A stretch of 64,000 nucleotides of DNA from Candidatus Uhrbacteria bacterium (GCA_943359525.1 CALRHV010000001.1:82195-146194); one strand, 5' to 3'; positions 277 to 57,161 are shown, numbered from the stretch's first letter. The notes: a model not told the origin generated them from the letters alone. Made by a program: numbers and translations.

Positions 277-747
277 CTACGCCGTGGCGTGCATCATTGC
301 GCGGATCTTTTGTCGTTGATATCTGCCCTCAAGCGTGCCTTGTGCCAAAATGTGCCCCTCCATCGCGTCTTCAATCACTTGGCGTGGCGCGCCGTGGCCG
401 ATGTCCAAAATACAATCGAGTGCATAGCCGATGAAACGATATTCATGTTCACCAACTCCTGGGCATGGACCGCCATAACCAACCTCGCTGAAATCTGTTT
501 CTCCTTCACGTGCTCCTTGCGGGATACTGTTTTCGCGAACAACTCGCGTTGTTGGAGAAATATTCCACACACTCCAATGCAACCAATTTCCAGAAGGCGA
601 CGACGGGTCGTCCACCAACACCGCAATGCTCTGCGTGTCGCCAGGCACATCGTCGAACACAAGTTCTGGATTCACATCCTTCCCATCGCAAGTATATTTT
701 GCGGGGATCATCTCACCACTAAAGAACGCTGGAGACGTGACACGCAT
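277..747 (-). CDS. YbhB/YbcL (PEBP, Raf-kinase-inhibitor-like) family protein
   Basis: 156-aa ORF; the GYGGPCPP...HRY(RF) signature and overall layout are typical of bacterial PEBP proteins. Confidence 0.7.
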
Positions 748-940
748 AGATGTCGAGACTAGTGACGGCGCACAAGATCATCGGCAGCGCATTGATGTGA
801 TGCATTGTACAAACGCATGAAGAAAGCGTGAAGCGGAATCATCCACATGTGTATCACTCACTTGACGAGAAATATTTTTGTTCGGAATCGAAAACGCGGC
901 CCGTGCGTAGGGCCGCGTCTCGTCTGTCGTGTGCATCGAA

Positions 941-1318
941 CTACGCTCGAACGGAATCGCTCTTCCGTTCCCACGTGCCGGTTCCGTCTGGGGAACGAAC
1001 GTTCGTTGCCGCACGCTGAAACGCGATCGCCTTCGGGTTGACCACCCGATCGTTGGACTGATAGATCCCCTCGCGACGAACCGACGCCGGAACGTAGGAG
1101 AGCTCAGCCGAGAACATCGCGCCGGGCGCGAACAGGAGCGCGATCTGTTCACGCGATTTTCCAGCGAAGTGCATTACGCGGAGCGGAAGGCCGCGTTCGG
1201 TGCACAGACGGTAGATCTTGCCGTCGGCGTCCACGAAAATCGTAAACTCCACCAGCGGTTCACCTTTGCCGGAATCGACGACTTCGCATGAACGAACAAC
1301 ACACAGGAACTGGGACAT
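941..1318 (-). CDS. hypothetical protein
   Basis: ORF 941..1366 (-); trimmed to ATG 1318 (MSQFLCVV...), which has an AAGGAG spaced ~5 nt upstream. Confidence 0.45.
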   Translation of the reverse strand: MSQFLCVVRSCEVVDSGKGEPLVEFTIFVDADGKIYRLCTERGLPLRVMHFAGKSREQIALLFAPGAMFSAELSYVPASVRREGIYQSNDRVVNPKAIAFQRAATNVRSPDGTGTWERKSDSVRA

Positions 1319-1394
1319 GGAAGGCTCCTTCTTCTGCAGTGAACTCTCTTCGTCCGAAATGGACACGTCACGCTAACACAATATCAGAAAAAAG

Positions 1395-1712
1395 TTAAGA
1401 GGAGGACGGCTCCACGTGATTCACCCATCCGTCAATTCGACGCATCTCCTTATCGATCATCGGCCCCTCATATTCACCGCTATGTGCGTGATTTGATCCG
1501 TACGACGGCTTCTTCTGATCAAGGTGCAAGCTGAACAGTACTTCGTCGCCTTTATGATCGACGTACAAATGAAATCGAGGATAGAACTCCCCCGTCAAAC
1601 GCAACACAAAACTATTCTCTCCGCTCTGCGGATCCGTAAACGCCGAATACCCCGCCTTCCGCAAAACGGCCAACGGGCTGTGCATCACCTTTTTATCGTA
1701 TGTGACTTTCAT
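1395..1712 (-). CDS. hypothetical small protein
   Basis: ORF 1395..1802 (-) overlaps the tRNA gene, so it was trimmed to the internal start MKVTYDKK at 1712. The product has a plausible globular composition. Confidence 0.4.
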   Translation of the reverse strand: MKVTYDKKVMHSPLAVLRKAGYSAFTDPQSGENSFVLRLTGEFYPRFHLYVDHKGDEVLFSLHLDQKKPSYGSNHAHSGEYEGPMIDKEMRRIDGWVNHVEPSSS

Positions 1713-1755
1713 ACCGCCAGTGTAACAAAAAAGAACCGCGGAGGCGATTCTTTGT

Positions 1756-1843
1756 TGGCGGAAGGGGAGAGATTCGAACTCTCGATACCTTGCGGTATAC
1801 ACGCGTTCCAGGCGTGCGCACTAGGCCACTATGCGACCCTTCC
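1756..1843 (-). tRNA. tRNA-Ser (anticodon GGA)
   Basis: Reverse complement folds as a cloverleaf: acceptor GGAAGGG/CCCTTCC, anticodon stem CACGC/GCGTG with loop CTGGAAC, long variable arm, T-arm GAGAG-TTCGAAT-CTCTC, discriminator G, encoded CCA. Confidence 0.85.
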
Positions 1844-1882
1844 GTATTTGGGTGACGGAAGAATAGCTGATATTATCCTTCC

Positions 1883-3130
1883 ATGCAATTCGACGATTCA
1901 GAACATTTCGACGTCATCGTTATTGGCGGCGGAGCTTCCGGGCTTATGGCTGCGGCGACCGCGGCAAGCCGTGGCAAGCGGGTTTTGATACTCGAAAAAA
2001 ATCCGGAGTGCGGACGAAAGCTGTCGATTTCCGGTGGCGGACGGTGCAATATTACCAACGCCGAGTTCGACACACATCTGTTTTCCGATAACTACGGCGA
2101 TGCAAAGAAGTTCCTGCTTTCTGCATTCTCCCAGTTCGGCGTTCAAGAAACTTTCGATTACTTCAATTCACGAGGGCTAGCATTCATCACCGAAGCTCGT
2201 AAACGCGCGTTTCCGATCACTCACTCGGCTCCCGACGTGACGAATCTCCTCCTCGACGAATGCAAAAAGCACCACGTCAGAATTCAAACCTCCTCCCCTG
2301 TCATCAAAATCGATTTCTTCGAGAATGAAATTCTTTCTGTTTCAACTCGAAACGTTACGTACACTGCGACCTCGTATATCTTCGCCACCGGCGGATCGTC
2401 GCATCCAGAAACCGGATCAACTGGCGACGGATTCCCGTGGCTCTCCAAACTCGGCCACACCGTCGTTACTCCAACACCGTCACTCGTTCCGCTTGCGGTT
2501 CGTGAGCGTTGGGTGACCGATCTCCAAGGGATCACGGTCAAAGACGTGAAGATTTCGTTTACCGTCGACGGCCGTAAAGCATTCAACAAAAAGGGCTCTA
2601 TTCTCTTTACACACTTCGGGATCTCCGGGCCAACCGTGCTGCACTCCGCAAAAGGCGTCGCCGATCTGCTCCCCGAGGGCGAAGTCGTCGCACATCTTGA
2701 TCTCTTCCCTACCCTCGACGAAGGCACACTCAGCCGAAATCTTGTCGAGCTCTTCGACGCGCACAAGAACACGATGATCAAGAACGTATTCGCGGGAATG
2801 CTGCTTACCGGAATCGTGAATCGATCATTGGTGGTCGCTGAAATCGACCCCGATATGCAAGTGAACAGCGTCACCAAGGAACAACGTTCCCGTCTCGTCA
2901 AAGCATTCAAGGATCTTTCCTTCCCTATCGACGGCCTCCTTGGCATGGACAAAGCCATCATCGCCGACGGCGGAGTTCCTCTCTCCGAAGTGTCGATGCA
3001 GACGATGAAAAGCAAAATCGTCTCCAATCTCTTCCTCACCGGTGACCTCTTCCACATCGTCCGCCCCTCCGGTGGCTACTCCCTCCAACTCTGCTGGACG
3101 ACAGGATTTATTGCAGGAAACGCAGCGTAA
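1883..3130 (+). CDS. HI0933/YhiN-family NAD(P)/FAD-dependent flavoprotein (BaiN-like)
   Basis: 415 aa; N-terminal dinucleotide-binding motif VIVIGGGASGLMAA; family-typical GGGRCNITN and C-terminal motifs. Confidence 0.8.
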   Translation: MQFDDSEHFDVIVIGGGASGLMAAATAASRGKRVLILEKNPECGRKLSISGGGRCNITNAEFDTHLFSDNYGDAKKFLLSAFSQFGVQETFDYFNSRGLAFITEARKRAFPITHSAPDVTNLLLDECKKHHVRIQTSSPVIKIDFFENEILSVSTRNVTYTATSYIFATGGSSHPETGSTGDGFPWLSKLGHTVVTPTPSLVPLAVRERWVTDLQGITVKDVKISFTVDGRKAFNKKGSILFTHFGISGPTVLHSAKGVADLLPEGEVVAHLDLFPTLDEGTLSRNLVELFDAHKNTMIKNVFAGMLLTGIVNRSLVVAEIDPDMQVNSVTKEQRSRLVKAFKDLSFPIDGLLGMDKAIIADGGVPLSEVSMQTMKSKIVSNLFLTGDLFHIVRPSGGYSLQLCWTTGFIAGNAA

Positions 3131-3345
3131 ATTGGGCGAATCCTTGCGGAAAACGCGAGAACATGGTACTCTTTCGTTGCTTTGATTCGTCCTCAGTGTC
3201 GAATCTGTCCGTTGTGCCACGTGCACAATACGACCGGATTTCTGTCCGCGATACCGCGAAACGAGAAATCAAGCACTCTATTCAAGAGAACTTGCTGATT
3301 TCATCGTTTCGATTGAATCTTTCACGTTCTCACTGACATTCTTTC

Positions 3346-4803
3346 ATGACACACACAACCACAGCCGCACCAAGCGGCTTTGAAGGACTTGGCATTGCGC
3401 CAACGCTTCTCGAGATCCTTACGAAACACGGGTACACCACACCAACGCCAATTCAGCACCAGTCCATTCCAGTGGCGGTTGCCGGAAACGACGTGATTGG
3501 TATTGCCCAAACCGGTACGGGGAAAACGCTCGCATTCGGCATTCCAATGATCCAACGCCTTGCCCAGTTTAAAGGTCGTGGCTTGGTCATTTTGCCTACG
3601 CGCGAACTTGCACTGCAGGTGGATGAAAACCTCAAAAAGCTCGGCGCAGGTATTGGCATGAAAACTGCAGTGCTTATTGGCGGCGCTTCAATGCACCTCC
3701 AAAAGAAGGCCTTGCAAACAAAGCCACACGTTATCGTTGCGACTCCTGGTCGTCTTATTGATCATCTTGAGCAGAAAACGATTCGTTTGGACGACGTGAA
3801 GGTTCTTGTCCTCGACGAAGCCGACCGCATGTTGGACATGGGTTTTGCTCCGCAGATCGCAAAAATCCTCGCAACCGTGCCAAAGGACCGTCAAACAATG
3901 CTCTTCTCCGCAACCATGCCACTTGAAATTGTTCGCATCGCCAACACCGCAATGCGCACACCGGTTCGCGTGGAAGTTGCCCCACAAGGCACACTTGCAG
4001 AACGCGTCGAGCAAGAACTCATCTTCATCCCAAAACACGACAAGGAACGCATGCTCGAACTTCTCTTGAAGGAAACCGAGGGTACCGTCCTCGTGTTCTC
4101 TCGCACCAAACACGGCGCAAAGAAAATCGCTCGCGCCGTTCAGGCCATGGGAAACACCGTGGACGAGCTGCACTCAAACCGTTCATTGGCACAACGCCGC
4201 GGCGCACTTGAAGGCTTCAAATCCGGAAAGTATCGCGTGCTTGTTGCAACCGACATCGCCGCTCGTGGAATTGACGTGAAGGGCATTGCCCTCGTTATTA
4301 ACTACGATTTGCCAGACAATCCAGACGATTACGTTCACCGCATTGGTCGTACTGGCCGTGCAGGAATGGCTGGTAAGGCGGTTTCATTCGCAACACCAGA
4401 CCAGCGTGGCGATGTGAAGGGTATTGAACGCGTGATTCGTGGACTCATTCCATTGAAGCCTGTACCAAAGAACCTTCCAGCGTATCGCAACCTTCCACCA
4501 ATGGAACGCGATAACGATCCTCATGCTCGTGGGATTCGCGGAGAGAAAAAGTACGGTGCGCCATCAAGCGAGCGAAAGTACGGCGCAGCGCCACAAAAGG
4601 CGTACGAAAAGCAGTACAACGACCGCGGTTCAAAGCCAGTGCCACAAGGCCAGCATCGCGCAAAGCGATACGACACCGGTACGGCATCGGTAGCACCGTC
4701 GATGACGCCTCGTCCAATGACAGCATCAGTGACGACACAATCGTACGTTGCACCATCGGCAAATCAATTTGCACCATCGGCACCACGAAAGTTCCGGAAG
4801 TAA
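3346..4803 (+). CDS. DEAD-box ATP-dependent RNA helicase (DeaD/RhlE-like) with a basic low-complexity C-terminal tail
   Basis: Q-motif PTPIQ, motif I AQTGTGKT, DEAD, SAT, HRIGRTGR; about 215 nt of untranslated leader upstream. Confidence 0.9.
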   Translation: MTHTTTAAPSGFEGLGIAPTLLEILTKHGYTTPTPIQHQSIPVAVAGNDVIGIAQTGTGKTLAFGIPMIQRLAQFKGRGLVILPTRELALQVDENLKKLGAGIGMKTAVLIGGASMHLQKKALQTKPHVIVATPGRLIDHLEQKTIRLDDVKVLVLDEADRMLDMGFAPQIAKILATVPKDRQTMLFSATMPLEIVRIANTAMRTPVRVEVAPQGTLAERVEQELIFIPKHDKERMLELLLKETEGTVLVFSRTKHGAKKIARAVQAMGNTVDELHSNRSLAQRRGALEGFKSGKYRVLVATDIAARGIDVKGIALVINYDLPDNPDDYVHRIGRTGRAGMAGKAVSFATPDQRGDVKGIERVIRGLIPLKPVPKNLPAYRNLPPMERDNDPHARGIRGEKKYGAPSSERKYGAAPQKAYEKQYNDRGSKPVPQGQHRAKRYDTGTASVAPSMTPRPMTASVTTQSYVAPSANQFAPSAPRKFRK

Positions 4804-4811
4804 AATCACAA

Positions 4812-4850
4812 AGAACGCAGCTCAGAAATGAGCTGCGTTCTTTTGCATTG
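4812..4850. terminator. bidirectional rho-independent terminator between convergent helicase and dsbA-like genes
   Basis: AAAGAACGCAGCTCA-gaaa-TGAGCTGCGTTCTTTTGCATT: an 11-bp perfect stem flanked by an A-run and a T-run. Confidence 0.7.
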
Positions 4851-4868
4851 AACCGATCGTGCCATGCG

Positions 4869-5663
4869 CTATTTTGCCTTCGCAATCGCGTCGTCAATCA
4901 TCTTCTTCATACTCGCGTAAGGAACTGCGCCGGAAACAAGCGTGCCGTTCACGAACGTTGCCGGGGTTCCACTTACACCAGCCGTTCTGCCGGATGCTGC
5001 ACCCGCATCAACAACGCTCTGGTACTTCGCGCTGCTCACACAGTCGGCGAATTTCTTTGTATCAAGTTTAAGATCCGAAGCGATTTTGTTCACGAATGTC
5101 GTCGATGTCGCTGCATCGCCAGAAATCTGAGACTGGTCCGCGTACATTGCATCAGAGAACTCCCAGAACTTTCCTTGCTCACTTGCACATTCACTCGCAA
5201 GTGCCACTGGCTCCGCATTTGGATGAAACGACAATGGGAAGTGACGGTATACCCATGCAACATCGTCTCCGTAGTCCTTCACGATCTGCTGCATGGTTGG
5301 ATCATGTTTTGCACAATACGGACACTGGAAATCACTGTACTCCACCAACACCACCTTTGCCTTCTTGATATCCCCGCGAACGTGATCCTTGTCCGTTACG
5401 GGATCGAGTTTCCCTGCTGCTGCAGCGGCCACCGGTGCCGTCGCGGCTACTGGTGCCGCCACAGCTGAATTTGCTGCCGTGTCGATTGCTCCGCTGGAAA
5501 TGAGAGCAAAATTATTCAATAAAAGAATAATTGCCATTCCACTCGTCACACCAAACGTGAACATCGTTCGTGGATTTCCGTCAAGAAACCCAGGAGCTGA
5601 GGACTGGATCGGCGTAGATTCAATTGGTGCAGACCCCGGTACTTGGTTCATTTCATCAGACAT
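4869..5663 (-). CDS. DsbA-family thiol:disulfide oxidoreductase, membrane-anchored
   Basis: CPYC active site (VEYSDFQCPYCAKH) in a thioredoxin fold; N-terminal hydrophobic segment. Confidence 0.8.
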   Translation of the reverse strand: MSDEMNQVPGSAPIESTPIQSSAPGFLDGNPRTMFTFGVTSGMAIILLLNNFALISSGAIDTAANSAVAAPVAATAPVAAAAAGKLDPVTDKDHVRGDIKKAKVVLVEYSDFQCPYCAKHDPTMQQIVKDYGDDVAWVYRHFPLSFHPNAEPVALASECASEQGKFWEFSDAMYADQSQISGDAATSTTFVNKIASDLKLDTKKFADCVSSAKYQSVVDAGAASGRTAGVSGTPATFVNGTLVSGAVPYASMKKMIDDAIAKAK

Positions 5664-5699
5664 ACGTAGATATTACAGTTCGATGGAAGTCTATCAGCT

Positions 5700-6452
5700 T
5701 CAGAGGTTTCTCGCGCCTCTTTTTATCCACATTATGAAGAAGGCGCCGATTCCAAAAAGGACGATTGAGAAATACTGGCCTGGCGTTAAACCAAAATATC
5801 GAACGTCAATCACGCGCAAAAAGTCTAGGCCAAATCGCGTAACGCCATACCAAAGCGCAAATATTGCAAGATATGTTCCGACTGGACGCTCTTTTCGCGA
5901 AAGCCAGAACATCACAATCGCAAGAATACACGCGTTGATCGATAAATACAGCCCGAGATCGTGTCGCACGACGCCGTCGGGATACTGCACGCCGAGGATA
6001 AAATCGGTCGCCGTACCCGGATGATCGTGAATCAGGAAGCAACCGATTCTGCCAATCCATTTTCCGAATGGAAGACCGAATGCAATGACATCGGCGTAAC
6101 GAAAGACATCGACTTTTCGATGACGCAAATACAGAACACCCACGATCGACGCGAGAATAATTCCGCCGTACACCGACAGCCCCCCTTTCCAAATCTCGAA
6201 AATCTCCACAGGATGTGCCCAGTAATACGCGGGATCGTAGAAGAGAACATGACCGAGTCTGCCACCAACCATTCCCGCAATCGCCAACCACATCGTTACG
6301 TCGATAATGACCGCCGGATCGTCGCCTCGTCGCTTCGCTAACCAACACCCGGCCGCCGACCCAGCAACAAAACCAAGCGCGACGAATAGCCCCCAGACGT
6401 GGAGTGTGAGGGGACCGATGGAGAAAATCGTTGTGGAGAAATATGGGATCAT
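5700..6452 (-). CDS. lgt: prolipoprotein diacylglyceryl transferase
   Basis: 250-aa polytopic membrane protein with the Lgt signature region ...GKWIGRIGCFLIHDHPG... Confidence 0.8.
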   Translation of the reverse strand: MIPYFSTTIFSIGPLTLHVWGLFVALGFVAGSAAGCWLAKRRGDDPAVIIDVTMWLAIAGMVGGRLGHVLFYDPAYYWAHPVEIFEIWKGGLSVYGGIILASIVGVLYLRHRKVDVFRYADVIAFGLPFGKWIGRIGCFLIHDHPGTATDFILGVQYPDGVVRHDLGLYLSINACILAIVMFWLSRKERPVGTYLAIFALWYGVTRFGLDFLRVIDVRYFGLTPGQYFSIVLFGIGAFFIMWIKRGARNL

Positions 6453-6907
6453 AGCGCCCCCAACACAATCAACGCTCGTTTAAATTCGACGATTGCTTTT
6501 TGCGCTTGCGAGATTTTCATTTCTGATCCTGCTTCATGCACCAACGTATTTCGGAGTGAACGCGCCCAAAAAGTTCGTTGAAGGTCGTGATATTTTCGGC
6601 TTGCGAATTTTAATCTCTCCCCTGTTGTTGTTCCTGGAAACGATTTTGCCTTCAGCGCAAGATCGAGCACCGCATCGGCCTGTATGATCGCGAGCTTCAA
6701 ACTCATCGCGTCACCTCGATTCGCTAAATCCTCAACCGCCTTCCAATGCTTCGCGACATTATCGCGCTCGCTTCCAAACCTCCACCGCCGCATTGCCCTG
6801 CGAAGCCATACTGTCGCGATCAATAACAATACAAAACCGACGATGCCGATGACGACGTACGGAAGTACGGCTGATGCCATCGATGCAACGTCGGTGTTCA
6901 TACTCAT
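6449..6907 (-). CDS. hypothetical membrane-anchored protein
   Basis: 152 aa; one N-terminal TM helix followed by a helical soluble part; 4-nt overlaps with both neighbours. Confidence 0.5.
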   Translation of the reverse strand: MSMNTDVASMASAVLPYVVIGIVGFVLLLIATVWLRRAMRRWRFGSERDNVAKHWKAVEDLANRGDAMSLKLAIIQADAVLDLALKAKSFPGTTTGERLKFASRKYHDLQRTFWARSLRNTLVHEAGSEMKISQAQKAIVEFKRALIVLGAL

Positions 6908-8331
6908 GATGCATTATGCAACGCTTCAAACGCCGCAGCAACTTGCAATACTCTATTGTCGTCAAAACTCTTTCCAAGAATCTGCAATCCAACCGGCAAA
7001 CCATGTGCAGTGCCGCAAGGAACGGAGATACCTGGGATGCCGAGGATGTTTGCAGAGACGGTGAAGACGTCGGCGAGATACATGGAGACTGGATCATCCA
7101 TCTTTTCGCCAATTCCCCATGCCGCAATCGGCGAGACTGGTCCGACGATGACATCCACTTTCTTGAGCGCAGCGTCGAATTCCATCTTCATTGCTGCACG
7201 AACCGCAATCGCTTTCTTGTAGAACGCATCGTAGTAGCCAGCAGACAAAATGAATGTTCCCAGCATGATGCGACGCTTTGCTTCTGCGCCGAGTCCTGCA
7301 CCCCGAGCGGATCGATAACTTTCCTCGATTGCGCCTTCCCCACGATTGCCGTAGCGCATGCCATCAAAACGCGCCAAGTTGCTGCTCGCTTCTGCCGGCT
7401 GAATAATGTAGAACGCCGGCAACGCGTACGGCGCAAGCGGCAAAGACATGTTCACGATTTCTGCTCCGCCCTTCTTCAGTGTCTCGATCGCTTCGTGAAT
7501 TCGCGCGGCAACGTCCTCATCCATTCCGTCGATGAAATATTCTTTCGGCACGCCGATCCGAACACCTGCGAGGTCGGATGACACGTTTTCCGATGTTAGG
7601 TCGTCAAGAACAACCGATGTTGCATCGTGTGAATCTTTTCCTTCAATAATCGACAACACGATCGCAACGTCTTCAACCGTTGTTGCAATCGGGCCGATCT
7701 GATCGAGACTGGAACCGTCGGCGATCAAGCCGTAGCGCGAAACACGACCATACGTTGGCTTCATTCCCACAACACCACACAGTGATGATGGCTGACGGAT
7801 CGATCCGCCAGTATCGGAACCAAGCGCAGCAGGAATCATTCCTGCGGCCACAGCAGCAGCAGATCCGCCGGACGTTCCACCTGGAACTTTCGAGGTGTCG
7901 CGTGGGTTCTTCGTGACGTGAAATGCCGACGATTCGGTCGATGATCCGAACGCAAACTCGTCCATGTTCGTTCGGCCGATGATGATCGCACCGGCAGCTT
8001 GAAGACGAGTAACAACGGTCGCAGTGTAACTTGCGCGATAATCTGCGAGCATCTTTGAACCGGCACTCGCGATGTGGCCCATCACGAGCATGTTGTCTTT
8101 GAGCGCAATCGGAACTCCGGCCAATGGAAGATCGACCTCTCCTTTTGCGTGACGAGCGTCCACTTCTTTAGCCGCCTTCCGTGCATCGGTAGCGAACACT
8201 TCGAGAAATGCGCCGATCTCACCGTCTTTCTCCTCGATTCTACGTAATGCTTCATCGACTATCGATAGCGCGGTTACCGATCCCCCATTCACGGAATCCC
8301 GAATTGATTTTACGGTCCAATTGGTGTTCAT
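6904..8331 (-). CDS. gatA: Asp-tRNA(Asn)/Glu-tRNA(Gln) amidotransferase subunit A
   Basis: 475 aa; amidase signature GGSSGGSAAAVAAG plus Ser-cisSer-Lys context. Confidence 0.9.
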   Translation of the reverse strand: MNTNWTVKSIRDSVNGGSVTALSIVDEALRRIEEKDGEIGAFLEVFATDARKAAKEVDARHAKGEVDLPLAGVPIALKDNMLVMGHIASAGSKMLADYRASYTATVVTRLQAAGAIIIGRTNMDEFAFGSSTESSAFHVTKNPRDTSKVPGGTSGGSAAAVAAGMIPAALGSDTGGSIRQPSSLCGVVGMKPTYGRVSRYGLIADGSSLDQIGPIATTVEDVAIVLSIIEGKDSHDATSVVLDDLTSENVSSDLAGVRIGVPKEYFIDGMDEDVAARIHEAIETLKKGGAEIVNMSLPLAPYALPAFYIIQPAEASSNLARFDGMRYGNRGEGAIEESYRSARGAGLGAEAKRRIMLGTFILSAGYYDAFYKKAIAVRAAMKMEFDAALKKVDVIVGPVSPIAAWGIGEKMDDPVSMYLADVFTVSANILGIPGISVPCGTAHGLPVGLQILGKSFDDNRVLQVAAAFEALHNAS

Positions 8332-8334
8332 AGA

Positions 8335-8619
8335 TTACGCGGCAAACACACCAGGAACTTCCATTGCACCGCCGACCTGCTTTGGGAACGCGGCAATAAC
8401 CGCGTCGCGCTCTTCGCGAGATGAGGTGATTACGTCTTCGCGAAGCACGTTTACCGCGTCCGTAAGATACGCTTTCGCATCAACACCAGATGTGTCGACC
8501 TCTTGCAGCTTACTGACGTATGCCAAAATGTCGGGCAGCTGACGTGCGAGCATCTCCATTTCTTCGTCGGTAAGCTGTAATTTGGCTAAGGTTGCAAGCC
8601 GTTTGATGTCGATGTCCAT
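8335..8619 (-). CDS. gatC: Asp-tRNA(Asn)/Glu-tRNA(Gln) amidotransferase subunit C
   Basis: 94 aa; MDIDIKRLATLAKLQLTDEEMEML... is typical of GatC; lies directly upstream of gatA. Confidence 0.8.
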   Translation of the reverse strand: MDIDIKRLATLAKLQLTDEEMEMLARQLPDILAYVSKLQEVDTSGVDAKAYLTDAVNVLREDVITSSREERDAVIAAFPKQVGGAMEVPGVFAA

Positions 8620-8622
8620 AGA

Positions 8623-10707
<2,085 letters not shown>

Positions 10708-11700: not shown

Positions 11701-12504
11701 CTACCCCAAAAGTCCGAAGTACCAGGAAACTACCGAGTTTCCAAAAAAGAGGGCGATGATGGTGCCGATGACCATGAAGGTTCCAAACGGGACGTGGCTG
11801 CGGAGGTCGCGGCGACGGAAGAAGATGAGGTAAATACCGAGAATGGCGCCGATGGCGTAGGCGGTGAGAAGGGCAAAGATGCCGAGCTCGGGGCCGAGGA
11901 GGAAACCCATCACCATCGCCAAGCGAATATCTCCCCCACCAACCCATGTTCCGCGAGAAGCAATATATTGCACTGCAAAAAATGATCCAAGAAGAAATCC
12001 GCCGAGCAGCATCGTCAACGGATCAACACCCATCACTGCGTTCAATGAAAGCGCGATGATCATTGCCGGAACAGAGAGACGATCCGGAATAATGCTCGCG
12101 CGATAATCGAACATGAAAATCGGCAAGAGCAGCATTGCAAGCAAGCCGTTGCGAAGGAACAACCCCATTGCATCTGATGCGTCGCGAGCGAAGTATGGGA
12201 TGTTCGAGTCTTGTGTAACGATTTGATACGCGAATCCCATGAACAAAAGCATCATGGCGATTTCAAGCACGGGATACTGCCAAGGAATCACGGTTTTGCA
12301 CGCACGACACTTTGCCTGAAGCACCAGATAACTCACCAGTGGAAAATGATCCTTGGCATGCATCGGCCTGGCGCACGTCACGCACTTTCGTCGACCAGCG
12401 GTAAATCGCAATCCATCTGGCGTGCGCAACATGAAAATGTTCACGAATGCTCCGCACACTAAGCCGAGAACTCCCGCAACCACGATGATAGGAAACAATG
12501 GCAT
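11701..12504 (-). CDS. pilD: type IV prepilin peptidase (A24 family)
   Basis: 267 aa; N-terminal tetracysteine zinc site CVTC...CRAC followed by polytopic membrane peptidase and methyltransferase regions. Confidence 0.85.
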   Translation of the reverse strand: MPLFPIIVVAGVLGLVCGAFVNIFMLRTPDGLRFTAGRRKCVTCARPMHAKDHFPLVSYLVLQAKCRACKTVIPWQYPVLEIAMMLLFMGFAYQIVTQDSNIPYFARDASDAMGLFLRNGLLAMLLLPIFMFDYRASIIPDRLSVPAMIIALSLNAVMGVDPLTMLLGGFLLGSFFAVQYIASRGTWVGGGDIRLAMVMGFLLGPELGIFALLTAYAIGAILGIYLIFFRRRDLRSHVPFGTFMVIGTIIALFFGNSVVSWYFGLLG

Positions 12505-12507
12505 AGA

Positions 12508-12993
12508 TTAGAGCGCGGCGCAGGTGCCGGTTTTAAATCCGTTTTCGCTTAAACAATCGAGCCCCTTCGCCACACCAAGCAACGAATTCCCCCCTTCAAG
12601 CTCGAACTGAATGCGATACGAATCTGCGGTTCCACTGTAACAATACACATCACTCACCCCACCACAAACTACTAATCCATCAATTCCCGCTGACGGCGGA
12701 GTCGTCACAACGGACAGATACGGCGTTGGGCCGTTGAGCGAACATGGTGCAGCGAATCCTTCTGGTGATAAACATGCAGTGAGCGCTTGTCCAAGCGGAA
12801 TCGCCTCGGCAGCGATTGGATATGCGCTGTGATTTTGGAAATACATCTCCAACGCCATCTGCAATTCGCGCACATTCGCAAGCCGCGTCACGTCGCGAGT
12901 ATGGCTTCGGGCCGACAGCACGGCGTAACCCGACACAAGACCGATCACACCAATAATTGCGGCCATGATAAGGATTTCTGCGGTTCGTGTCAT
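12508..12993 (-). CDS. type IV pilin-like (pseudopilin-like) protein
   Basis: 161 aa; hydrophobic prepilin-type N-terminal helix with Glu (MTRTAEILIMAAIIGVIGLV), but no canonical Gly-Phe cleavage site; lies between pilM and pilD. Confidence 0.5.
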   Translation of the reverse strand: MTRTAEILIMAAIIGVIGLVSGYAVLSARSHTRDVTRLANVRELQMALEMYFQNHSAYPIAAEAIPLGQALTACLSPEGFAAPCSLNGPTPYLSVVTTPPSAGIDGLVVCGGVSDVYCYSGTADSYRIQFELEGGNSLLGVAKGLDCLSENGFKTGTCAAL

Positions 12994-13373
12994 AGGAGAA
13001 TGATGTTATGAAGCCGCTCTGCCACGCTTCGCGGTGTACTATGTGTTGTAAGAATAATATCATCTGCACCGGCCTTGTGCAGCGCCGCAACAAAAACGCT
13101 GCTTGCCTTCTTTGTAAATACAACGAGATGAAGCGACTTCATGGTTGGCTGTTTGTGCAGTGCGCGAACGTGCGCTACCACATCGTCGTCAGTTCCAACG
13201 CTCCCAGCATCAATCACGAGAAGCGCCGCATGAAGACGAAGCGCGCGACGTTCAAACTCCGCTATTTCCGGCACAAGAACCACCTTCGCAAAGCGTTCAA
13301 GATGACGTTCGTATACCGCGCCAAGAGCAGTATGCGTCGTCACCAACACGATAGTTGGCTTTACGTTGACCAT
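12990..13373 (-). CDS. hypothetical protein (weak resemblance to a CheY-like receiver fold)
   Basis: 127 aa; alternating beta/alpha pattern with a conserved Asp in LLVIDAGS and Lys in FTKK; sits in the pil cluster with 4-nt overlaps. Confidence 0.35.
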   Translation of the reverse strand: MVNVKPTIVLVTTHTALGAVYERHLERFAKVVLVPEIAEFERRALRLHAALLVIDAGSVGTDDDVVAHVRALHKQPTMKSLHLVVFTKKASSVFVAALHKAGADDIILTTHSTPRSVAERLHNIILL

Positions 13374-13378
13374 ATCGT

Positions 13379-14491
13379 TTACTTTTCTTTCTCCGCCACC
13401 ACACGCATAGCCAAACCAATCGCCACAGCGAGACGGCTTCCCACTTCATCAAGGACAGCGCGAGACTCTGGTGGCGTTGCAATTCGAGCCCACGGATCGC
13501 CGATGTATACATTCATGTTCAACGTGCTTGTCATCGCCGCATCAATCCCGGCAAGCGCTGCAGAACCACCGGTCAAAATCACCTTATCAACCGGTTTCGG
13601 CTGCTGCGTATTTTCCTGAAGGTTGATGTCGAGCGCGTACCTTACCTCATGCAGCAGCGGCTTGATTGCCGCAAGAATGGCTGGAGGCATCGTTGCTCCA
13701 GTGCCAAGCGCCAAGTCTTTTTTCGTTGCCTCTGCTTCCGGCAAGCCAATGCTCATTGCGCCAGAAAGCGCCTGAGTCACCGCGCCACCACCGGATTTAA
13801 TTCCGCGAGTAAGATATGGCACGCCTCGCTCTGCAATAAGAATATTCGTTCGATCGCCACCAATATCCACAATCATCGTTTTTGCGTTGTCCTTCCCGAT
13901 CAATGATCGCATCAACGCGAACACCTCGGTTTCCAATGAAATCAACTCGATCTTTGCGAGCGCGAACACGGCAAGATACTTTTCAACGAGCGCTTTTGGC
14001 GCCGCCGTCACCTGCACGCGAACGGTCTTTGCTTTTGATTCGGTAGCATCGCCTTCCTTTGGCAAGAAATCCTTGTCGATGATGTACGAATCGATGATCA
14101 TCTCCGCAACCGGCAATGGCAACAACTTCCCCGCCTGTGTCTCCACTAATGGACGGATATCTTCTTTGGCTGACTTTGGCGCGGGAATACTAATAATTGC
14201 GTGAAACACACTTTGTGCCGGCAACGATGCAACAGCCTTCGTCGCCTTCATGCCGCTTGCCTTGATAATGCCGCACAGCACCTGCGCAAGCTTCTTTGGC
14301 TCATCGATCGAAAGCGCCGACGCATCGCCGCCATATGGAATATCCGCGTAGCCGTATGTGATCAATCGAATACGACCAGCGTCTGGCGCAAGCTCGACGA
14401 CCTTTAAACCCGTCGTTCCAAGATCCACGCCAAGTAACGCCTGAGAGACTTCCTCTTTTTTTGTTCCAAACATATAGGGAAAGTATAGCAC
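13379..14491 (-). CDS. pilM: type IV pilus assembly protein PilM (actin-like ATPase)
   Basis: 370 aa; N-terminal GVDLGTTGLKVVEL and a second GGDRTNI phosphate-binding motif. Confidence 0.85.
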   Translation of the reverse strand: MLYFPYMFGTKKEEVSQALLGVDLGTTGLKVVELAPDAGRIRLITYGYADIPYGGDASALSIDEPKKLAQVLCGIIKASGMKATKAVASLPAQSVFHAIISIPAPKSAKEDIRPLVETQAGKLLPLPVAEMIIDSYIIDKDFLPKEGDATESKAKTVRVQVTAAPKALVEKYLAVFALAKIELISLETEVFALMRSLIGKDNAKTMIVDIGGDRTNILIAERGVPYLTRGIKSGGGAVTQALSGAMSIGLPEAEATKKDLALGTGATMPPAILAAIKPLLHEVRYALDINLQENTQQPKPVDKVILTGGSAALAGIDAAMTSTLNMNVYIGDPWARIATPPESRAVLDEVGSRLAVAIGLAMRVVAEKEK

Positions 14492-52130: not shown

Positions 52131-53120
52131 CAACACCTTCATCAACCCAACTTCATGAACGTGGAGTAATGGATATTTCTTTCGCAATGATTCATTCGGA
52201 GCGTGCCAGGTGAGCTTTCCTTTGGCGTAGAGCGAAAGCACTTTCGGATGAATATAGGATTTTTTGCAGACGACGACGGTGTTGCCGAGGGCATCTGCAG
52301 CGCGTTGAATCGCGGCTTTCACATTCTGTTGTATTTCTCGTTTCGTCTCAACGGCCGGCCGATCCCAAAGATACGACGCGACGATGACGGTGCCGTGCCA
52401 GGTACGAAAATCTTTGGCGGTAATCTCTTCCTTCGAAATCGATTTCAGATACTCGTTGACGTCTTCCGATTGGACATCATGCGGCTTACCCTCGTGATCG
52501 AGATACTCAAAAAGCTTCTGTCCAGGAATATCGTGGCACGTTGCGACGATCTTCCGGATTCGCTCATCCTCGATGGGAAATTCGTGCGCGATCCCATCCT
52601 TCCCATCGAACGCAAGTCCCATGTACTCCCCCGTTCCCTTCACGTGCCGATTCCGCAACGTCGTCAAACCGAATGAGTGATTATCTTTCGCATACTCCTC
52701 ATTGCCGATGCGAATGAATGCCGTATCTAATAGCTCAACGATCGCTGCGAGCACCTTGTCTTTTGGTATCCCTCGAAGGCGCAAGTCGTGATCAACTCGA
52801 CGACGAATGCGGGAGAGCGATACCGCAAACTCGTTCATCCGATGAAACTTCCCCTCATTCTGCTTCGCGATCCAGTCGTGATGATAGATGTATTGTTTTC
52901 TATTTCGCGCGTCGATCGCCGTTGCTTGAATATGGCCGTTTGCAAACGGGCAGATCCACACGCTGGAATACGCCGGAGGAATGCCAAGGGAACGAATGCG
53001 AGCCAAAACGTTTGCGTTTCGGATCTTTCGTCCCTTTTCGTCGCGATATACCACACCAAACCAACCCTTTGTTCGGGTAAAGCCGGGAATCGTATCAATC
53101 ACGTATCGGAGTCGCATCAC
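52116..53120 (-). CDS. DNA topoisomerase IB (poxvirus-like bacterial TopIB)
   Basis: 334 aa; catalytic-domain layout with the active-site Tyr in KKSYIHP near the C-terminus and conserved Arg/Lys/His positions. Confidence 0.75.
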   Translation of the reverse strand: MMRLRYVIDTIPGFTRTKGWFGVVYRDEKGRKIRNANVLARIRSLGIPPAYSSVWICPFANGHIQATAIDARNRKQYIYHHDWIAKQNEGKFHRMNEFAVSLSRIRRRVDHDLRLRGIPKDKVLAAIVELLDTAFIRIGNEEYAKDNHSFGLTTLRNRHVKGTGEYMGLAFDGKDGIAHEFPIEDERIRKIVATCHDIPGQKLFEYLDHEGKPHDVQSEDVNEYLKSISKEEITAKDFRTWHGTVIVASYLWDRPAVETKREIQQNVKAAIQRAADALGNTVVVCKKSYIHPKVLSLYAKGKLTWHAPNESLRKKYPLLHVHEVGLMKVLEGLN

Positions 53121-53458
53121 TGTAGTATATCCTGTTTCGCTACAACGTATGTCGTTTGCGCGTCCTGCCGATGCATTGCAGTTGCTCGCACGCTACGGTA
53201 TTGGCATAACTTTGAGCAATCTCACGTTGGTGCCAATCCACACGACGTCAATTCGCGCAGTGCCCTTCTTTTCACAGGCACCACTTGGGGATTGGTATGA
53301 TCCTCGTCAAAGCGAAGGACGCGACATCATCACGGCTATGTTGTAGTTTTTGTTAATTATCCTTCTGGCGACTACGTACCCGTTACCCCAATGCCAACGG
53401 CAATGATTATTATCAAGCCGGAATAGCATGGTAAAATGCTCATAATCATTCTTGGATT

Positions 53459-56278
53459 ATGGTAAAGCTTCGTAACGCACTTCTTGGCGCAGCAGTCGGT
53501 CTTGGTATTGGTGCAGCAAGCATCGAACACGCAGAGGCAAAAGACTTCGCCACCGCCCAGTCGCCAGACCCAACGTTTCCCTTTGAGCGCCTTGCGATTG
53601 GCGGCACACCGGAAGACATCGATGAGCTCCTCACGCACATCAACGACTGGGCGTACAAAGATAGAGCAGGCGACGTGGCGGTAGAACTTGCAAAAAAATA
53701 TCCGTACGACGTCATAAAACACAATAAGGATTTTCTTGATCTTGGCGTTCCGTGGACAGACGAGGTTTTGCGATCCGCACTACATTCGGCCACCGACGAA
53801 TCTCGGAACTACGACATTTTCCGATATTTTGACGTAGGCGATCCAAGAACCGCTCGCCTTTTTGAGGAATCCATGGACACCGTGTCTAGGCCACTGACTC
53901 ACTATTATTGGAGGACCTCGTTGGGATTATCGCAACAGCAACACGATGCGTATTCTGAACTCATGCGCAAGGCAATTTCCGTAGAGGCCGCTCAGCGTCC
54001 CATGCAAATGTTCCGCACTGCATACAATGACCAAGATCAATTCGCGAAGTTCGTTCCAAACCGTACCAAACGGAAGGCACTCATGGAACAGATGATTGTC
54101 AACATCATTGAATCCGGTGACGACGAAGATCTTAAGGAAATGGCTCGCTACGCACAAGGATCTTCTGATATCCGAATACTCATCGCTCAGCACTATGGTT
54201 GGGAGCGGTTTCTTGAGCAGTGCGCCGAACGCATACCTGGAGCCGTTCTCCGCAGCTTCCGTGATTGGAGAAGTCCGTTCTTTGTGTTTTGGGCTGAAAA
54301 GAAACGCATGGAGGTGTATCGCAATGCCACAGAACGCGATCCGGGCGCGCTCATTTGGGAATGGAGAAATGAATCGAAATATCACGAACTCCAACAACAG
54401 AATCATCGCGACGAAATGAAGCGCCTCGCTGGCGATGCGTATACAAAGGTCATTACAGAACACCTCGATGAGTTTCATGTGCAGCATCTCCTCACGCCAG
54501 AAGTGATGCGAGAAATTCCTGCGATCGATACTGCGCTTCGCTCCTCGGCAGAAAAGAATCCCGCGCAGCTTCTTGACGCTCTGGATGTAGACGTTTTAGA
54601 AATCGATGCAACGCCATACCTTGAAATCGCCGCACGAAGCGCCATCGCGAAGCGTACATGGAAGAACGCTCGCCCTGTTCGTCACGAGGAATCGAAGATC
54701 ACCGCTTATGGCGATGAGCGCAGATCATATTCTCGATATGGCGACGATCTTTACACCGTGAATCAATTCGGCCGCCTTCCAGATCATGAGGAACTCGAGG
54801 TGGCGTGGTTCAAGGCGGCGATGACGGATATTCCAGGCGAAACACTTGGACTGTATTTTCGCGAACCGTGGACCAGCAAGGCGCTCGACGAGAATCTTCC
54901 TGGGAACCTCATGTACGCACAAGAAATGAATCCTGCTGCCATCGATACAACCCTCGACATCCCTACGCTTACCTTCGATGAGCGACATCTTCTCCTTGGT
55001 TCTCGAGCGAAGGATGATTTTGCGGAAGCAACAAGAGACGCAATAACGATTCTGCAACTCGATAAAGGAACCAGTTCAAAGCTCGCGTATCAGCTGTTGT
55101 GGATCCTTGAAGAAGCTCAGCCGTACGAATTTTCCGCGTGGGTGAAGGAACTCGAAAAAACACCGGCGCCGAATTCACTTCTGGACGACTGGAAAAAGGC
55201 TGTCACCAAAGAACAATGGGACGGACTCGTGAAACACGCTGATAGTATTGAGAAGAGCAAAGCATACGAAACGCTCGCAACGTCCACGATTGGCACTGGT
55301 TTTCGATTCAATACCGCAACGCTCGAAGAGCTGCTTGGAATGAATTATCACCATCGGCTGCGCACCACCGTTGCGTCGAGCAATTCCTATGGAGCATATG
55401 AAGGAAAAAACTTTATTACTGTTCCGATGCTTGCGTTTGAAACGATTGCCACATCAAAGGCCTTTGAACGCTACATCGATGCGCACGCAAACGATAAGCT
55501 CTCGTTCGTTACCCTCTGCTCAACCGTGCAAGCAACGTGGCGTAGATTACGCGATTTGCATATGGATCCATCGCCGGCGAATATCGAGCGCGCGCTCAAT
55601 GATGTAGAGCAGCAATGGGAACATGTAAAAAATGTAGAAGTCTTTGGACCGCACACCGACGTCATTACCATTGCGCACGAAGAAGCGCGATTTAGCAACA
55701 CGGAATTTATCGATCAGTTGGTGCTCGGCCATGGCGGGAATGCGAAACAGGTGCTGTTTCAAGGAAAGGGCGCAAAAGACGAATCCGCAATTCTCACGGC
55801 GATCAGCACAAAAAAGACCAAGTCCATCACCATCGCCTTTCATGGTCACGGGCTTGAACAAGGCCTGTATCTCGACGACCGAACTCCGATCGAACCAACG
55901 GAACTCGGCGCCGCGCTCATTGCCTCTGACAACATTCAAAACACTCGTCTCATCCTCCACTCGTGCCACGCATACGACTTCGTGGATCAACTGCTCAGAT
56001 ATTTGCGCGAGAAACATATTGACACTACCGGTTTCGTCGTCGTCACGGGCGCAAACAAAAACGCACTTGGATTCGGCACTGGCAATAACACAAATCCAGT
56101 TTTAGACAGCCGGTATCTTAGCGCTATCCACACGCAAAATGCCGGGAGACCAATTACGGTCGACGCATTCCGCAGAGCCGAAAACATTGATTGGATTCAC
56201 CAAGACCCAAGCATCACCGTCGGCCTGCCACTTGAAAGCGGATGGATGACGGGAATTGAAGTTGCGGAAGCTGAATAA
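53459..56278 (+). CDS. large secreted helical-repeat protein with a C-terminal CHAT/caspase-like domain
   Basis: Signal peptide MVKLRNALLGAAVGLGIGAASIEHAEA; about 700 aa of helical repeats; C-terminal ITIAFHGHG (His-Gly) and LILHSCHA (hydrophobic block then Cys) spaced as in clan-CD peptidases. Confidence 0.5.
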   Translation: MVKLRNALLGAAVGLGIGAASIEHAEAKDFATAQSPDPTFPFERLAIGGTPEDIDELLTHINDWAYKDRAGDVAVELAKKYPYDVIKHNKDFLDLGVPWTDEVLRSALHSATDESRNYDIFRYFDVGDPRTARLFEESMDTVSRPLTHYYWRTSLGLSQQQHDAYSELMRKAISVEAAQRPMQMFRTAYNDQDQFAKFVPNRTKRKALMEQMIVNIIESGDDEDLKEMARYAQGSSDIRILIAQHYGWERFLEQCAERIPGAVLRSFRDWRSPFFVFWAEKKRMEVYRNATERDPGALIWEWRNESKYHELQQQNHRDEMKRLAGDAYTKVITEHLDEFHVQHLLTPEVMREIPAIDTALRSSAEKNPAQLLDALDVDVLEIDATPYLEIAARSAIAKRTWKNARPVRHEESKITAYGDERRSYSRYGDDLYTVNQFGRLPDHEELEVAWFKAAMTDIPGETLGLYFREPWTSKALDENLPGNLMYAQEMNPAAIDTTLDIPTLTFDERHLLLGSRAKDDFAEATRDAITILQLDKGTSSKLAYQLLWILEEAQPYEFSAWVKELEKTPAPNSLLDDWKKAVTKEQWDGLVKHADSIEKSKAYETLATSTIGTGFRFNTATLEELLGMNYHHRLRTTVASSNSYGAYEGKNFITVPMLAFETIATSKAFERYIDAHANDKLSFVTLCSTVQATWRRLRDLHMDPSPANIERALNDVEQQWEHVKNVEVFGPHTDVITIAHEEARFSNTEFIDQLVLGHGGNAKQVLFQGKGAKDESAILTAISTKKTKSITIAFHGHGLEQGLYLDDRTPIEPTELGAALIASDNIQNTRLILHSCHAYDFVDQLLRYLREKHIDTTGFVVVTGANKNALGFGTGNNTNPVLDSRYLSAIHTQNAGRPITVDAFRRAENIDWIHQDPSITVGLPLESGWMTGIEVAEAE

Positions 56279-56337
56279 GCCTGATATCGTACAGCCTCAG
56301 ACATGGCAGCCTGCTTTATGGCTCCAAAATTTCATAT

Positions 56338-56475
56338 ATGGACGACACCAACGTAGTACCAGCAGCAGACGAAACCGCAGCTCCAGTTGCAGCGCCAGAA
56401 GAAACAACAGCTCCTGCTACAGACATGCTAACAGACGACGTCGCTCCAGCAGCAGACGAAGAAGTCACCGCGTAA
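56338..56475 (+). CDS. 46-aa acidic Pro/Ala/Asp/Glu/Thr-rich micro-ORF (below the ORF-track length cutoff)
   Basis: MDDTNVVPAADETAAPVAAPEETTAPATDMLTDDVAPAADEEVTA; starts 60 nt after the CHAT-like gene and is followed by a hairpin/T-tract. Confidence 0.35.
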   Translation: MDDTNVVPAADETAAPVAAPEETTAPATDMLTDDVAPAADEEVTA

Positions 56476-56481
56476 TTTCCG

Positions 56482-56520
56482 CGGTTCGCAAAAACCCTAG
56501 CGAGCAATCGCTGGGGTTTT
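56482..56520 (+). terminator. terminator-like hairpin with T-tract
   Basis: AAAAACCCTAGCGAGCAATCGCTGGGGTTTTTGATTT. Confidence 0.5.
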
Positions 56521-56546
56521 TGATTTCATGCGATACAATACGACAT

Positions 56547-57161
56547 ATGGCATCGTGGACCACCGAAGAACAAAAGATTCTCAAAAAACTCTCAACGCCC
56601 GCCAAGATTCAAGATTTCTTGAACGGCCTTCGATTCCGGATTATCGGCGGGAACGAAACCTGTCATTCCCCGCGACTCGTCCTTCGCCATCGGGAGGCAC
56701 AGTGCATGGAAGGGGCGATGTTCGCGGCGGCTGTGCTTCGATTCCATGGTTACCGACCGCTCATTATCGACCTCACATCGACCGCGCAGGATCAAGATCA
56801 CGTCATCTCTGTGTTTCAGATTGGTGGCTTTTGGGGAGCAATTTCGAAGACGAATCACGGGGTTCTGCGATATCGTGAGCCCGTGTATCGATCAGTTCGT
56901 GAACTCGTCATGAGCTACTTTCACGAATACTTCCTTCAATCGAATCGAAAGAAAACACTACGAGGATTCTCGAAACCGGTCGATCTCTCACGATTCGATC
57001 GGAGAGAATGGGAAACGAGCGAAGAACCGATTTGGTATATTCCCGAATATCTCTTAACAATTCCCCACTCGCCAATTCTGAATCGATCGCAAATTGCCCG
57101 GCTCCGCATCGCCGACCCAATCGAGGCACAGATGACGGAAATCGTGGAATGGCGTACGTAA
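56547..57161 (+). CDS. transglutaminase-like (Cys-His-Asp papain-like) superfamily protein
   Basis: Real start MASWTTEEQ; the upstream 97 codons of the ORF are Arg/Ser-rich antisense-like. Core AQCMEGAMFAAAVLRFHGY ... DHVISVF. Confidence 0.45.
   Translation: MASWTTEEQKILKKLSTPAKIQDFLNGLRFRIIGGNETCHSPRLVLRHREAQCMEGAMFAAAVLRFHGYRPLIIDLTSTAQDQDHVISVFQIGGFWGAISKTNHGVLRYREPVYRSVRELVMSYFHEYFLQSNRKKTLRGFSKPVDLSRFDRREWETSEEPIWYIPEYLLTIPHSPILNRSQIARLRIADPIEAQMTEIVEWRT

Follow-up and report, generated by a model that had tools for sequence, protein, structure and literature searches.

Three neighboring genes at one locus of a Candidatus Uhrbacteria genome

We examined a three-gene locus in a 64,000-nt stretch of DNA (hereafter the window, whose coordinates are used throughout) from a genome of Candidatus Uhrbacteria, which belongs to the Patescibacteria or candidate phyla radiation (CPR). 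Three neighboring open reading frames (ORFs) lie here on the plus strand and encode proteins of 939, 45, and 204 amino acids (aa); the second of them, the micro-ORF, starts 59 nt after the stop codon of the first (Table 1). The ORF check bore out the coordinates that the first-pass annotation, an earlier reading of this DNA, had given for all three, and only the length of the micro-protein, put there at 46 aa, had to be corrected to 45 aa, as the 46 codons count the stop. The locus is present in identical copies in several metagenome assemblies and metagenome-assembled genomes (MAGs), and the species representatives closest to the window are named Uhrbacteria. We consider it likely that these are three independent genes, which are neighbors by shared descent in one small Ca. 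Uhrbacteria clade. The new content of the locus is a C13-like clan CD family without annotation, found in CPR bacteria and at least one archaeon, together with a small conserved acidic gene; the already known part is the 204-aa gene, a member of the CPR-C4 family.

Table 1. Features of the three-gene locus, in window coordinates
Feature	Position	Strand	Basis or remark
Sigma-70-like promoter candidate TTATCA-16-TAAAAT, with TG	53410..53437	+	upstream of the 939-aa gene; consensus match
939-aa gene	53459..56278	+	signal-peptide-like N terminus, all-alpha N-terminal region, C-terminal clan CD peptidase domain
Predicted Sec-type signal peptide, residues 1-27	53459..53539	+	K3/R5, hydrophobic 7-22, AEA/KD junction
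All-helical (alpha-solenoid-like) region, residues about 40-724	53576..55630	+	full-length structural model
Clan CD (caspase-hemoglobinase fold) peptidase domain, residues about 725-925	55631..56233	+	
Putative catalytic His797 codon (GHG)	55847..55849	+	invariant in relatives; aligned with GPI8 GHG
Putative catalytic Cys836 codon	55964..55966	+	invariant in relatives; aligned with GPI8 IIDTC
Residues 931-939, TGIEVAEAE, short C-terminal motif	56251..56278	+	recurs as [hydrophobic]-E-[IV] in the domain family
Conserved micro-ORF leader	56275..56337	+	alignment; nhmmer
Micro-ORF, 45-aa acidic P/A/T/E/D/V-rich protein	56338..56475	+	net charge about -12
Intrinsic terminator hairpin	56489..56522	.	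A-run and U-run flanks; minus-strand version flagged too
-10-like box TACAAT	56534..56539	+	7 nt before the CPR-C4 ATG; leaderless-type; consensus match; also in L009
CPR-C4 family cysteine protease, 204 aa	56547..57161	+	Cys53 at 56703, His85 at 56799, Leu107 at 56865

The 939-aa protein carries a C13-like clan CD peptidase domain

Scans of the 939-aa protein against Pfam (E up to 1), NCBIfam, and PADLOC gave no match, phmmer against the PDB sequences gave a single spurious match to a urease, and a word-indexed homologue search recovered only one relative, the 917-aa P0002, with 38% identity (P and L numbers designate proteins and loci). Relatives were collected by an exhaustive hidden Markov model (HMM) profile search, which covered 1.84 billion cluster representatives and yielded 144 proteins. 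Four of these are full length, namely, the window protein, P0002, P0123, and P0124, the last being the L008 gene or a near-identical copy of it; the remaining matches share only the C-terminal ~260 residues (about 670 to 945) and occur in proteins of 117 to 5549 aa. All domain-family members that carry a source name are labeled "hypothetical" and come from Patescibacteria, Peregrinibacteria, and an archaeon.

Codon inspection placed His797 within ITIAFHGHG and Cys836 within LILHSCHA. In the domain alignment both residues are conserved in 110 of 110 sequences and Gly798 in 109 of 110, and H797 and C836 are invariant also in alignments A3 and A6. An AlphaFold2 (AF2) model of residues 667 to 939, calculated from a 38-sequence alignment, had a predicted local distance difference test score (pLDDT) of 90.3 and a predicted template modeling score (pTM) of 0.89, and its elements follow the order b1-a1-b2-a2-b3-[His797]-a3-b4-[Cys836]-a4-b5-a5-b6. 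In clan CD peptidases, the His precedes the Cys in sequence, the dyad is carried on loops L3 (after b3) and L4 (after b4), and the caspase-hemoglobinase fold consists of a central six-stranded sheet with five flanking helices (McLuskey and Mottram, PMC4357240). Both the element order and the dyad placement of the model fit this topology. Thus, the 939-aa protein carries a C-terminal peptidase domain of clan CD, presumably an active one; in the standard mechanism of the clan, His797 on loop L3 would activate Cys836 on L4, which would then attack the scissile bond.

The family within the clan was examined through the relatives. A Pfam scan of 38 domain-family members detected Peptidase_C13 in 8, C25 in 7, and C14 in 4 of them. 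The C13 matches were weak; P0143 passes the C13 (PF01650) cutoff (34.8 versus 22.8 bits), over profile positions 89 to 173 only. Alignment of the family profile with human GPI8 paired GHG and IIDxC with the catalytic region, at an E value of 0.94 that alone is not significant. The window protein itself stays under the 22.8-bit PF01650 threshold, and CHAT (PF12770) was neither matched in Pfam nor the closest in structural similarity. Because the window protein falls below every family-level Pfam threshold, the domain was filed as a C13-like new family in clan CD, and the known family that it is most like is C13 (legumain/GPI8), not CHAT. The CHAT/caspase-like peptidase proposed in the first-pass annotation thus stands as far as the clan CD fold and its His-Gly/hydrophobic-strand-Cys dyad are concerned, as the alignment, the Pfam matches of relatives, and the model all show, whereas the assignment to CHAT does not.

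The protein differs from its known counterparts in several respects. With the C13 peptidases legumain and GPI8/PIGK it shares 10 to 12% identity; it is without the LSAM prodomain of legumain and instead has a ~660-residue helical N-terminal region and a short C-terminal x-E-[IV] motif. No significant sequence match links it to the C14B metacaspases and paracaspases, and neither a p20/p10 linker nor Ca-binding features were identified in it. The CHAT proteases (TPR-CHAT/Csx29 and SAVED-CHAT) and separase belong to the same clan and likewise place a C-terminal clan CD protease domain after a large helical-repeat region.

The likely specificity was considered at the S1 pocket, whose positions were judged by sequence position. 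The family consensus is acidic there (E742 after b1, and Asp at Cys-2), although the Cys-2 position of the window protein is His834. Because these acidic residues are unlike the legumain S1 set, which is Arg/His/Glu/Asp, specificity for Asn is not expected; the acidic consensus rather seems to resemble that of the Arg/Lys-specific metacaspases and paracaspases, and Arg or Lys would then be predicted at P1. The substrates of the domain would be extracellular or on the cell surface.

The C-terminal motif of the window protein, TGIEVAEAE, has a low pLDDT. Nearly all clan CD-domain proteins end similarly, in [hydrophobic]-[ILMV]-E-[IVL]-[AGS] (C termini of P0125 to P0260), for example, YLEIAKK, FLEISS, PPTVIEIAxNEQEMEE, and GGMEIM, after a variable linker of 0 to 70 aa that is often P/E/K-rich. 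The motif might contribute one more strand to the fold, or it might serve in processing or sorting.

N-terminal region of the 939-aa protein

By inspection, the N terminus, MVKLRNALLGAAVGLGIGAASIEHAEA followed by KD, resembles a Sec signal peptide in its n/h/c arrangement. A signal-peptide-like N terminus is conserved in P0002, P0123, and P0124, that is, across the four full-length homologues, and residues 1 to 32 have a pLDDT below 50 in the full-length AF2 model. In the domain family as a whole, a hydrophobic N-terminal segment is found in only 37 of 143 proteins. The 939-aa product appears to be exported.

The full-length AF2 model (pLDDT 79.5) is all-helical over residues about 40 to 725, mostly with a pLDDT above 80, and this region is broken by two disordered loops, residues 405 to 430 and 604 to 653. 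The helical stretch of about 700 aa described in the first-pass annotation was therefore recovered in the model. Only generic repeat-protein matches were obtained for it, and residues about 1 to 660 are common to the four full-length homologues only. As in other proteins that combine a solenoid with a clan CD domain, the helical region would probably select substrates or anchor the enzyme.

In L001 (region 1543 to 3536), P0002 is encoded directly downstream of a sortase gene and a gene for an Ice_binding/SpaA_2 (pilin-like) protein. These neighbors hint at a cell-surface context for P0002; no sortase or Ice_binding/SpaA_2 gene is found near the window copy. Because the L001 homologue adjoins such genes, a sortase-type sorting signal (GLPLESG...) was considered at the C terminus of the 939-aa protein, and it was rejected, as the motif is followed by neither a hydrophobic anchor nor a basic tail.

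The 204-aa protein is a member of the CPR-C4 family

The 204-aa protein lies inside a mechanical ORF of 56256 to 57161, and its start at ATG 56547 matches the N termini of all homologues (consensus MxxWT...). A phmmer search against PDB sequences matched it to 7OB6/7PJO with an E value of 4.3e-63 and 216 bits, residues 4 to 202 of the query aligning with 23 to 226 of the chain. These entries, together with 7OB7, are crystal structures of CPR-C4, a homodimeric cysteine protease that is remotely like the human vasohibins in structure (Cornish et al. 2022, PMC9108980). Its triad is Cys61-His93-Leu115 (carbonyl), with a Tyr positioning the Leu carbonyl, and it has a tri-aspartate Zn site (PMC9108980). 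In the 204-aa protein, C53 (within AQCMEGA), H85 (within DHV), and L107 map to C61, H93, and L115, the Cys and His codons having been checked; Y109, S100, D75, and D84 are present as well, and alignment A2, of 34 sequences, shows no variation at C53 or H85.

By full-length similarity and triad, the 204-aa protein is thus a member of the CPR-C4 family (CP01A subfamily of PMC9108980), an assignment made from sequence comparison. It has the same length and triad, Y109, Ser100, two of the three Zn-site aspartates (D75 and D84), and a CPR origin, and it differs in nothing essential, being an orthologue from a mesophilic Uhrbacteria lineage. The neighbors do differ: the published CPR-C4 gene has unrelated ones (ABC transporters), whereas the window gene follows the conserved acidic micro-ORF. 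Protease activity and the homodimer were shown for a thermophilic homologue only; a positively charged pocket was described as "implying a negatively charged substrate," the natural substrate being unknown (PMC9108980). The 204-aa protein would be cytoplasmic and transcribed from its own leaderless-type promoter.

The match of the protein to Pfam DUF553 (PF04473) reached 12 bits (E 0.14), under the 20.5-bit gathering threshold, and the NCBIfam scan gave nothing usable. The transglutaminase-like kinship is visible only through the CPR-C4 and vasohibin structures. An earlier call of a transglutaminase/papain-like peptidase was therefore right in kind, given the 7OB6 match, but the protein is not a nameless one: it is CPR-C4, which has been solved and assayed.

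The protein database holds 7896 homologues of the 204-aa protein, and CPR-C4 occurs in at least 579 species, among CPR bacteria and DPANN archaea alike. Homologues with 52 to 59% identity to the bacterial protein occur in MAGs labeled as DPANN archaea (Woesearchaeota, Pacearchaeota, Nanoarchaeota, and Iainarchaeum; loci L033, L036, L040, L041, L048, L052, L053, L057, L072, L076, L077, L084, and L086). This cross-domain conservation is unusually high, and some MAG labels (e.g., "Gammaproteobacteria") look unreliable; archaeal matches are mentioned, not discussed, in PMC9108980. In L001, a 522-aa gene call (11905 to 13473) contains a CPR-C4 homologue with 83% identity at 12844 to 13449 and is probably a fused or mis-started call.

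A probable small acidic gene precedes CPR-C4

The micro-protein is composed of 12 Ala, 7 Asp, 7 Thr, 5 Glu, 5 Pro, and 5 Val residues among others, with no basic residue. Composition scans, an nhmmer model of the leader, and a profile search together recovered the micro-ORF from this clade in at least 12 different genomes; the copies of L008 and L018, where the mechanical ORF starts further upstream, were recovered by a sliding-window scan and nhmmer. Every copy begins with M-[TDSN]-D-[DGE], has 32 to 50 codons, and keeps the P/A/T/E/D/V composition with almost no basic residues, and endings such as ...EE-x-A-A or ...EVAE are retained. The annotated frame had the best codon log-likelihood in all 7 copies that were framed correctly, stops usually interrupt the other forward frames, and a strong three-base periodicity is seen (position 1, 62% G; position 2, 48% C; position 3, 46% A). 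The dN/dS ratio was uninformative, as any two copies differ in only 2 to 5 codons of the conserved 5' third and the 3' part does not lend itself to alignment.

When the window micro-ORF was compared with that of L094 (4730 to 4864), the first 66 nt differed at 2 positions, and the 3' halves were unrelated, with frame and composition kept. The 3' half of the gene appears to be mosaic or hypervariable.

A conserved DNA-level element of roughly 75 nt forms the leader. Its parts are an extended -10-like box, TGnTATGGT, present here as TGATATCGT (56282 to 56290), an upstream ATG (56303 to 56305), a hairpin (56304 to 56326), and an invariant GGCTCCAA box (56320 to 56327). The nhmmer leader model detected it once per locus with E values of 1e-13 to 1e-20 in all loci except L014 (5e-07). 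RNAalifold predicted a conserved 7-bp hairpin with no compensatory changes, so that the structure is neither supported nor refuted. Rfam gave no match on the micro-ORF unit; the SNORD66, C0465, and Leu-leader matches lay elsewhere, all below gathering scores.

The leader ATG, 12 to 14 nt after the -10-like box, opens a variable upstream ORF (uORF; MAACFMAPK..., 56303 to 56356 in the window) of 13 to more than 30 codons, which is found at the same position in L008, L009, L012, L013, L014, L001, L088, and L094; in L009, L088, L013, and L014 the uORF stop and the main start share the sequence ATGA. The uORF peptide is unlikely to be what is conserved in the leader, given that the ATG is missing in L018, that a 2-nt indel shifts the frame in L013, and that its length varies.

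Its recurrence in at least 12 genomes, with frame, composition, leader, and terminator kept, makes the micro-ORF a probable small gene, predicted to be translated into an intrinsically disordered, very acidic protein. The recovery in orthologous loci, together with the terminator described below, also upholds the first-pass proposal of a micro-ORF with a terminator of its own. It is rather unlikely, in our view, that the micro-ORF is untranslated and that the unit 56282 to 56522 is a small noncoding or mainly RNA-level gene made of a promoter, a conserved 5' hairpin, a variable body, and a terminator. Such a gene would agree with the fact that conservation is highest over the untranslated leader and the initial ~66 nt of the ORF, as the window and L094 illustrate, and with the invariance of the leader hairpin and the GGCTCCAA box. 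The micro-ORF also has no Shine-Dalgarno sequence, it has too few substitutions for an informative dN/dS ratio, and it is T-poor, so that the antisense frame is open too. However, an ATG-initiated frame of 32 to 50 codons persists in every copy despite many indels and full turnover of the 3' part, and both the N-terminal M-[TDSN]-D-[DGE] and the ...EE-x-A-A/E ends are conserved. The stops in other frames, the codon log-likelihood, and the periodicity likewise oppose a noncoding gene, a Shine-Dalgarno sequence is missing from most genes of the window genome anyway, and the unit shows neither an Rfam match nor covariation. Although a translated gene is thus preferred, an RNA-level or dual role may be possible, since the leader and first ~66 nt are conserved even at synonymous sites.

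Terminator and promoter-like boxes

The hairpin after the micro-ORF has a 15-bp stem and a folding energy of -24.8 kcal/mol (z = -5.4), and none of 200 shuffles was as stable. A hairpin with a T-run follows the micro-ORF in 7 of 7 aligned loci. Because A-run and U-run lie on its flanks, the terminator is probably bidirectional. Consensus matches of the kind that mark the promoter candidate of the 939-aa gene are no more numerous in the region than in shuffles. With a promoter-like box for each gene and a terminator between the micro-ORF and CPR-C4, the three genes look like three separate transcription units, as far as consensus boxes and a predicted hairpin can tell.

Many long ORFs of the window carry a -10-like box (TAnAAT or TATACT, often after TGn) 6 to 12 nt before the ATG and no Shine-Dalgarno sequence, for example, at 53117(-), 56547(+), 21957(-), 14473(-), 46971(-), and 18550(-). 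A loose Shine-Dalgarno-like 4-mer was found in only 14 of 62 long ORFs. The pattern suggests that many mRNAs of this Uhrbacteria genome are leaderless or have short leaders.

Gene neighborhoods point to shared descent

Linkage was examined in 80 species-representative CPR-C4 loci out of at least 579. A clan CD gene was found within 5 kb of CPR-C4 in 1 of the 80, L008 only. Five genomes (window, L008, L009, L012, and L018) have the micro-ORF directly upstream of CPR-C4, and four (L013, L088, L092, and L094) have one gene inserted between the two, the insert being a 3138-aa gene on the other strand in L088 and a SulP transporter gene in L094. The micro-ORF is found 1.2 kb downstream of CPR-C4 in L014, with two ORFs between them, and 3.7 kb away in L001, with two to three genes between them; in L090, CPR-C4 is not within 8 kb of it. 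L010 and L011 keep CPR-C4 with L21, GT4, and the oxidoreductase and lack the micro-ORF. Overall, linkage to CPR-C4 is about as frequent for L21, GT4, and the pyridine-nucleotide oxidoreductase as for the micro-ORF. The L088 insert (483 to 9899, minus strand) has no Pfam match on record, and the same MAG encodes P0123 and P0007.

The order clan CD gene, micro-ORF, CPR-C4 on one strand was seen in all four genomes with a full-length homologue (window, L008, MAG AAB473, and L001). Unrelated genes, up to five or more, interrupt it in two of the four; in L001, five (HSP20, PRPP synthetase, rhodanese, and others) separate the clan CD gene from the micro-ORF. At least eight genomes have the micro-ORF without a clan CD gene. 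Between the window and L008, the clan CD orthologues share 39% identity (53459 to 56278 versus 2035 to 4752) and the CPR-C4 proteins 85% (56547 to 57161 versus 5001 to 5606), a contrast typical of an accessory gene that evolves fast and encodes a surface or secreted protein.

The first-pass annotation had raised the idea that the three genes form one processing, maturation, or conflict module, whose products act on each other or in one pathway. The shared order in the four genomes speaks for it, and read-through from the 939-aa gene into the micro-ORF is possible in the window, where no terminator was seen to separate the two. The comparative data, however, make such a module highly improbable, and we did not retain it. 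The order is limited to four close relatives, the clan CD gene is near CPR-C4 in the one locus mentioned above, and the micro-ORF occurs without it or, in L001, five genes away from it. Each gene has its own promoter-like box, a terminator lies within the group, and the predicted compartments differ, the clan CD protein being exported and the other two having no export signal. PADLOC matched neither the 939-aa nor the 45-aa protein and gave one insignificant 12.8-bit match for the 204-aa protein. The other roughly 140 domain proteins have unrelated architectures, and the neighborhood of P0125, a distant domain-family member, has no micro-ORF/CPR-C4-type partners, although that neighborhood is uninformative. 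Neither cotranscription nor linkage beyond background synteny, by which an operon or module would be recognized, was found.

A second possibility treats the clan CD protease as an unrelated neighbor and the acidic disordered 45-mer as the natural substrate, regulator, or partner of CPR-C4 in this clade, for example, through trimming of its ...EEVTA tail, much as the acidic tubulin tail or SVBP serves the vasohibins. The analogy is that here, too, a gene for a vasohibin-fold protease stands beside one for a small acidic disordered polypeptide ending in ...EEVTA; the difference is that the pair is known from genes alone, that the genes look like separate transcription units, and that the micro-protein is restricted to one small clade. 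The adjacency in five genomes and the one-gene spacing in four favor such a pair, as does the finding that the micro-ORF leaves the CPR-C4 neighborhood in only 1 of 12 genomes, L090. The lasting closeness of an acidic micro-protein gene to an acidic-substrate protease gene is suggestive. Nevertheless, a functional pair seems improbable to us. The genes have separate promoter-like boxes with the stable terminator between them, the gap between them has admitted insertions as large as 9.4 kb, in some cases on the opposite strand, and L010 and L011 have kept CPR-C4, L21, and GT4 without the micro-ORF. About 70 of the 80 CPR-C4 loci have no comparable acidic ORF within 5 kb, even though CPR-C4 is so widespread, and in strength the linkage does not exceed that of the L21/GT4/oxidoreductase block. 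In published work, CPR-C4 is a partner-independent homodimer with no sign of needing a partner (PMC9108980).

We therefore favor three independent genes kept together by descent. The ancestral order would have been topIB(-), micro-ORF(+), CPR-C4(+), L21(-), and GT4(-), into which different genes, the clan CD gene included, would have been inserted later; the 939-aa gene would have entered between topIB and the micro-ORF as a lineage-specific accessory gene, one that evolves fast. Several points weigh against independence. The persistence of the three-gene order through insertions could reflect selection. The micro-ORF stays near CPR-C4 in L014 and L018 despite changed flanking genes, so that this linkage outlasts the loss of all other conserved neighbors searched for. 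An acidic substrate has been predicted for CPR-C4 (PMC9108980), and the micro-protein is extremely acidic. Finally, export, catalytic activity, and the substrates are predictions from sequence features, as are the transcription units and the translation of the micro-ORF.

Implications

None of these results changes the understanding of known systems. CPR-C4 is one of the few structurally characterized CPR proteins, and the adjoining acidic micro-protein gives a substrate or partner hypothesis for it. If true, the pair of micro-protein and CPR-C4 would be a bacterial counterpart of a vasohibin acting on the acidic tubulin tail, or of vasohibin-SVBP. The micro-ORF with its conserved leader also serves as an example of a small gene that is missed by standard ORF cutoffs. 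The clan CD domain family, which is without annotation in Pfam and NCBIfam, comprises about 140 cluster representatives at 50% identity and is found in CPR bacteria and at least one archaeon. CPR lineages are thought to live on other cells, and exported proteases of this kind are therefore candidate tools for host interaction or cell-surface remodeling.

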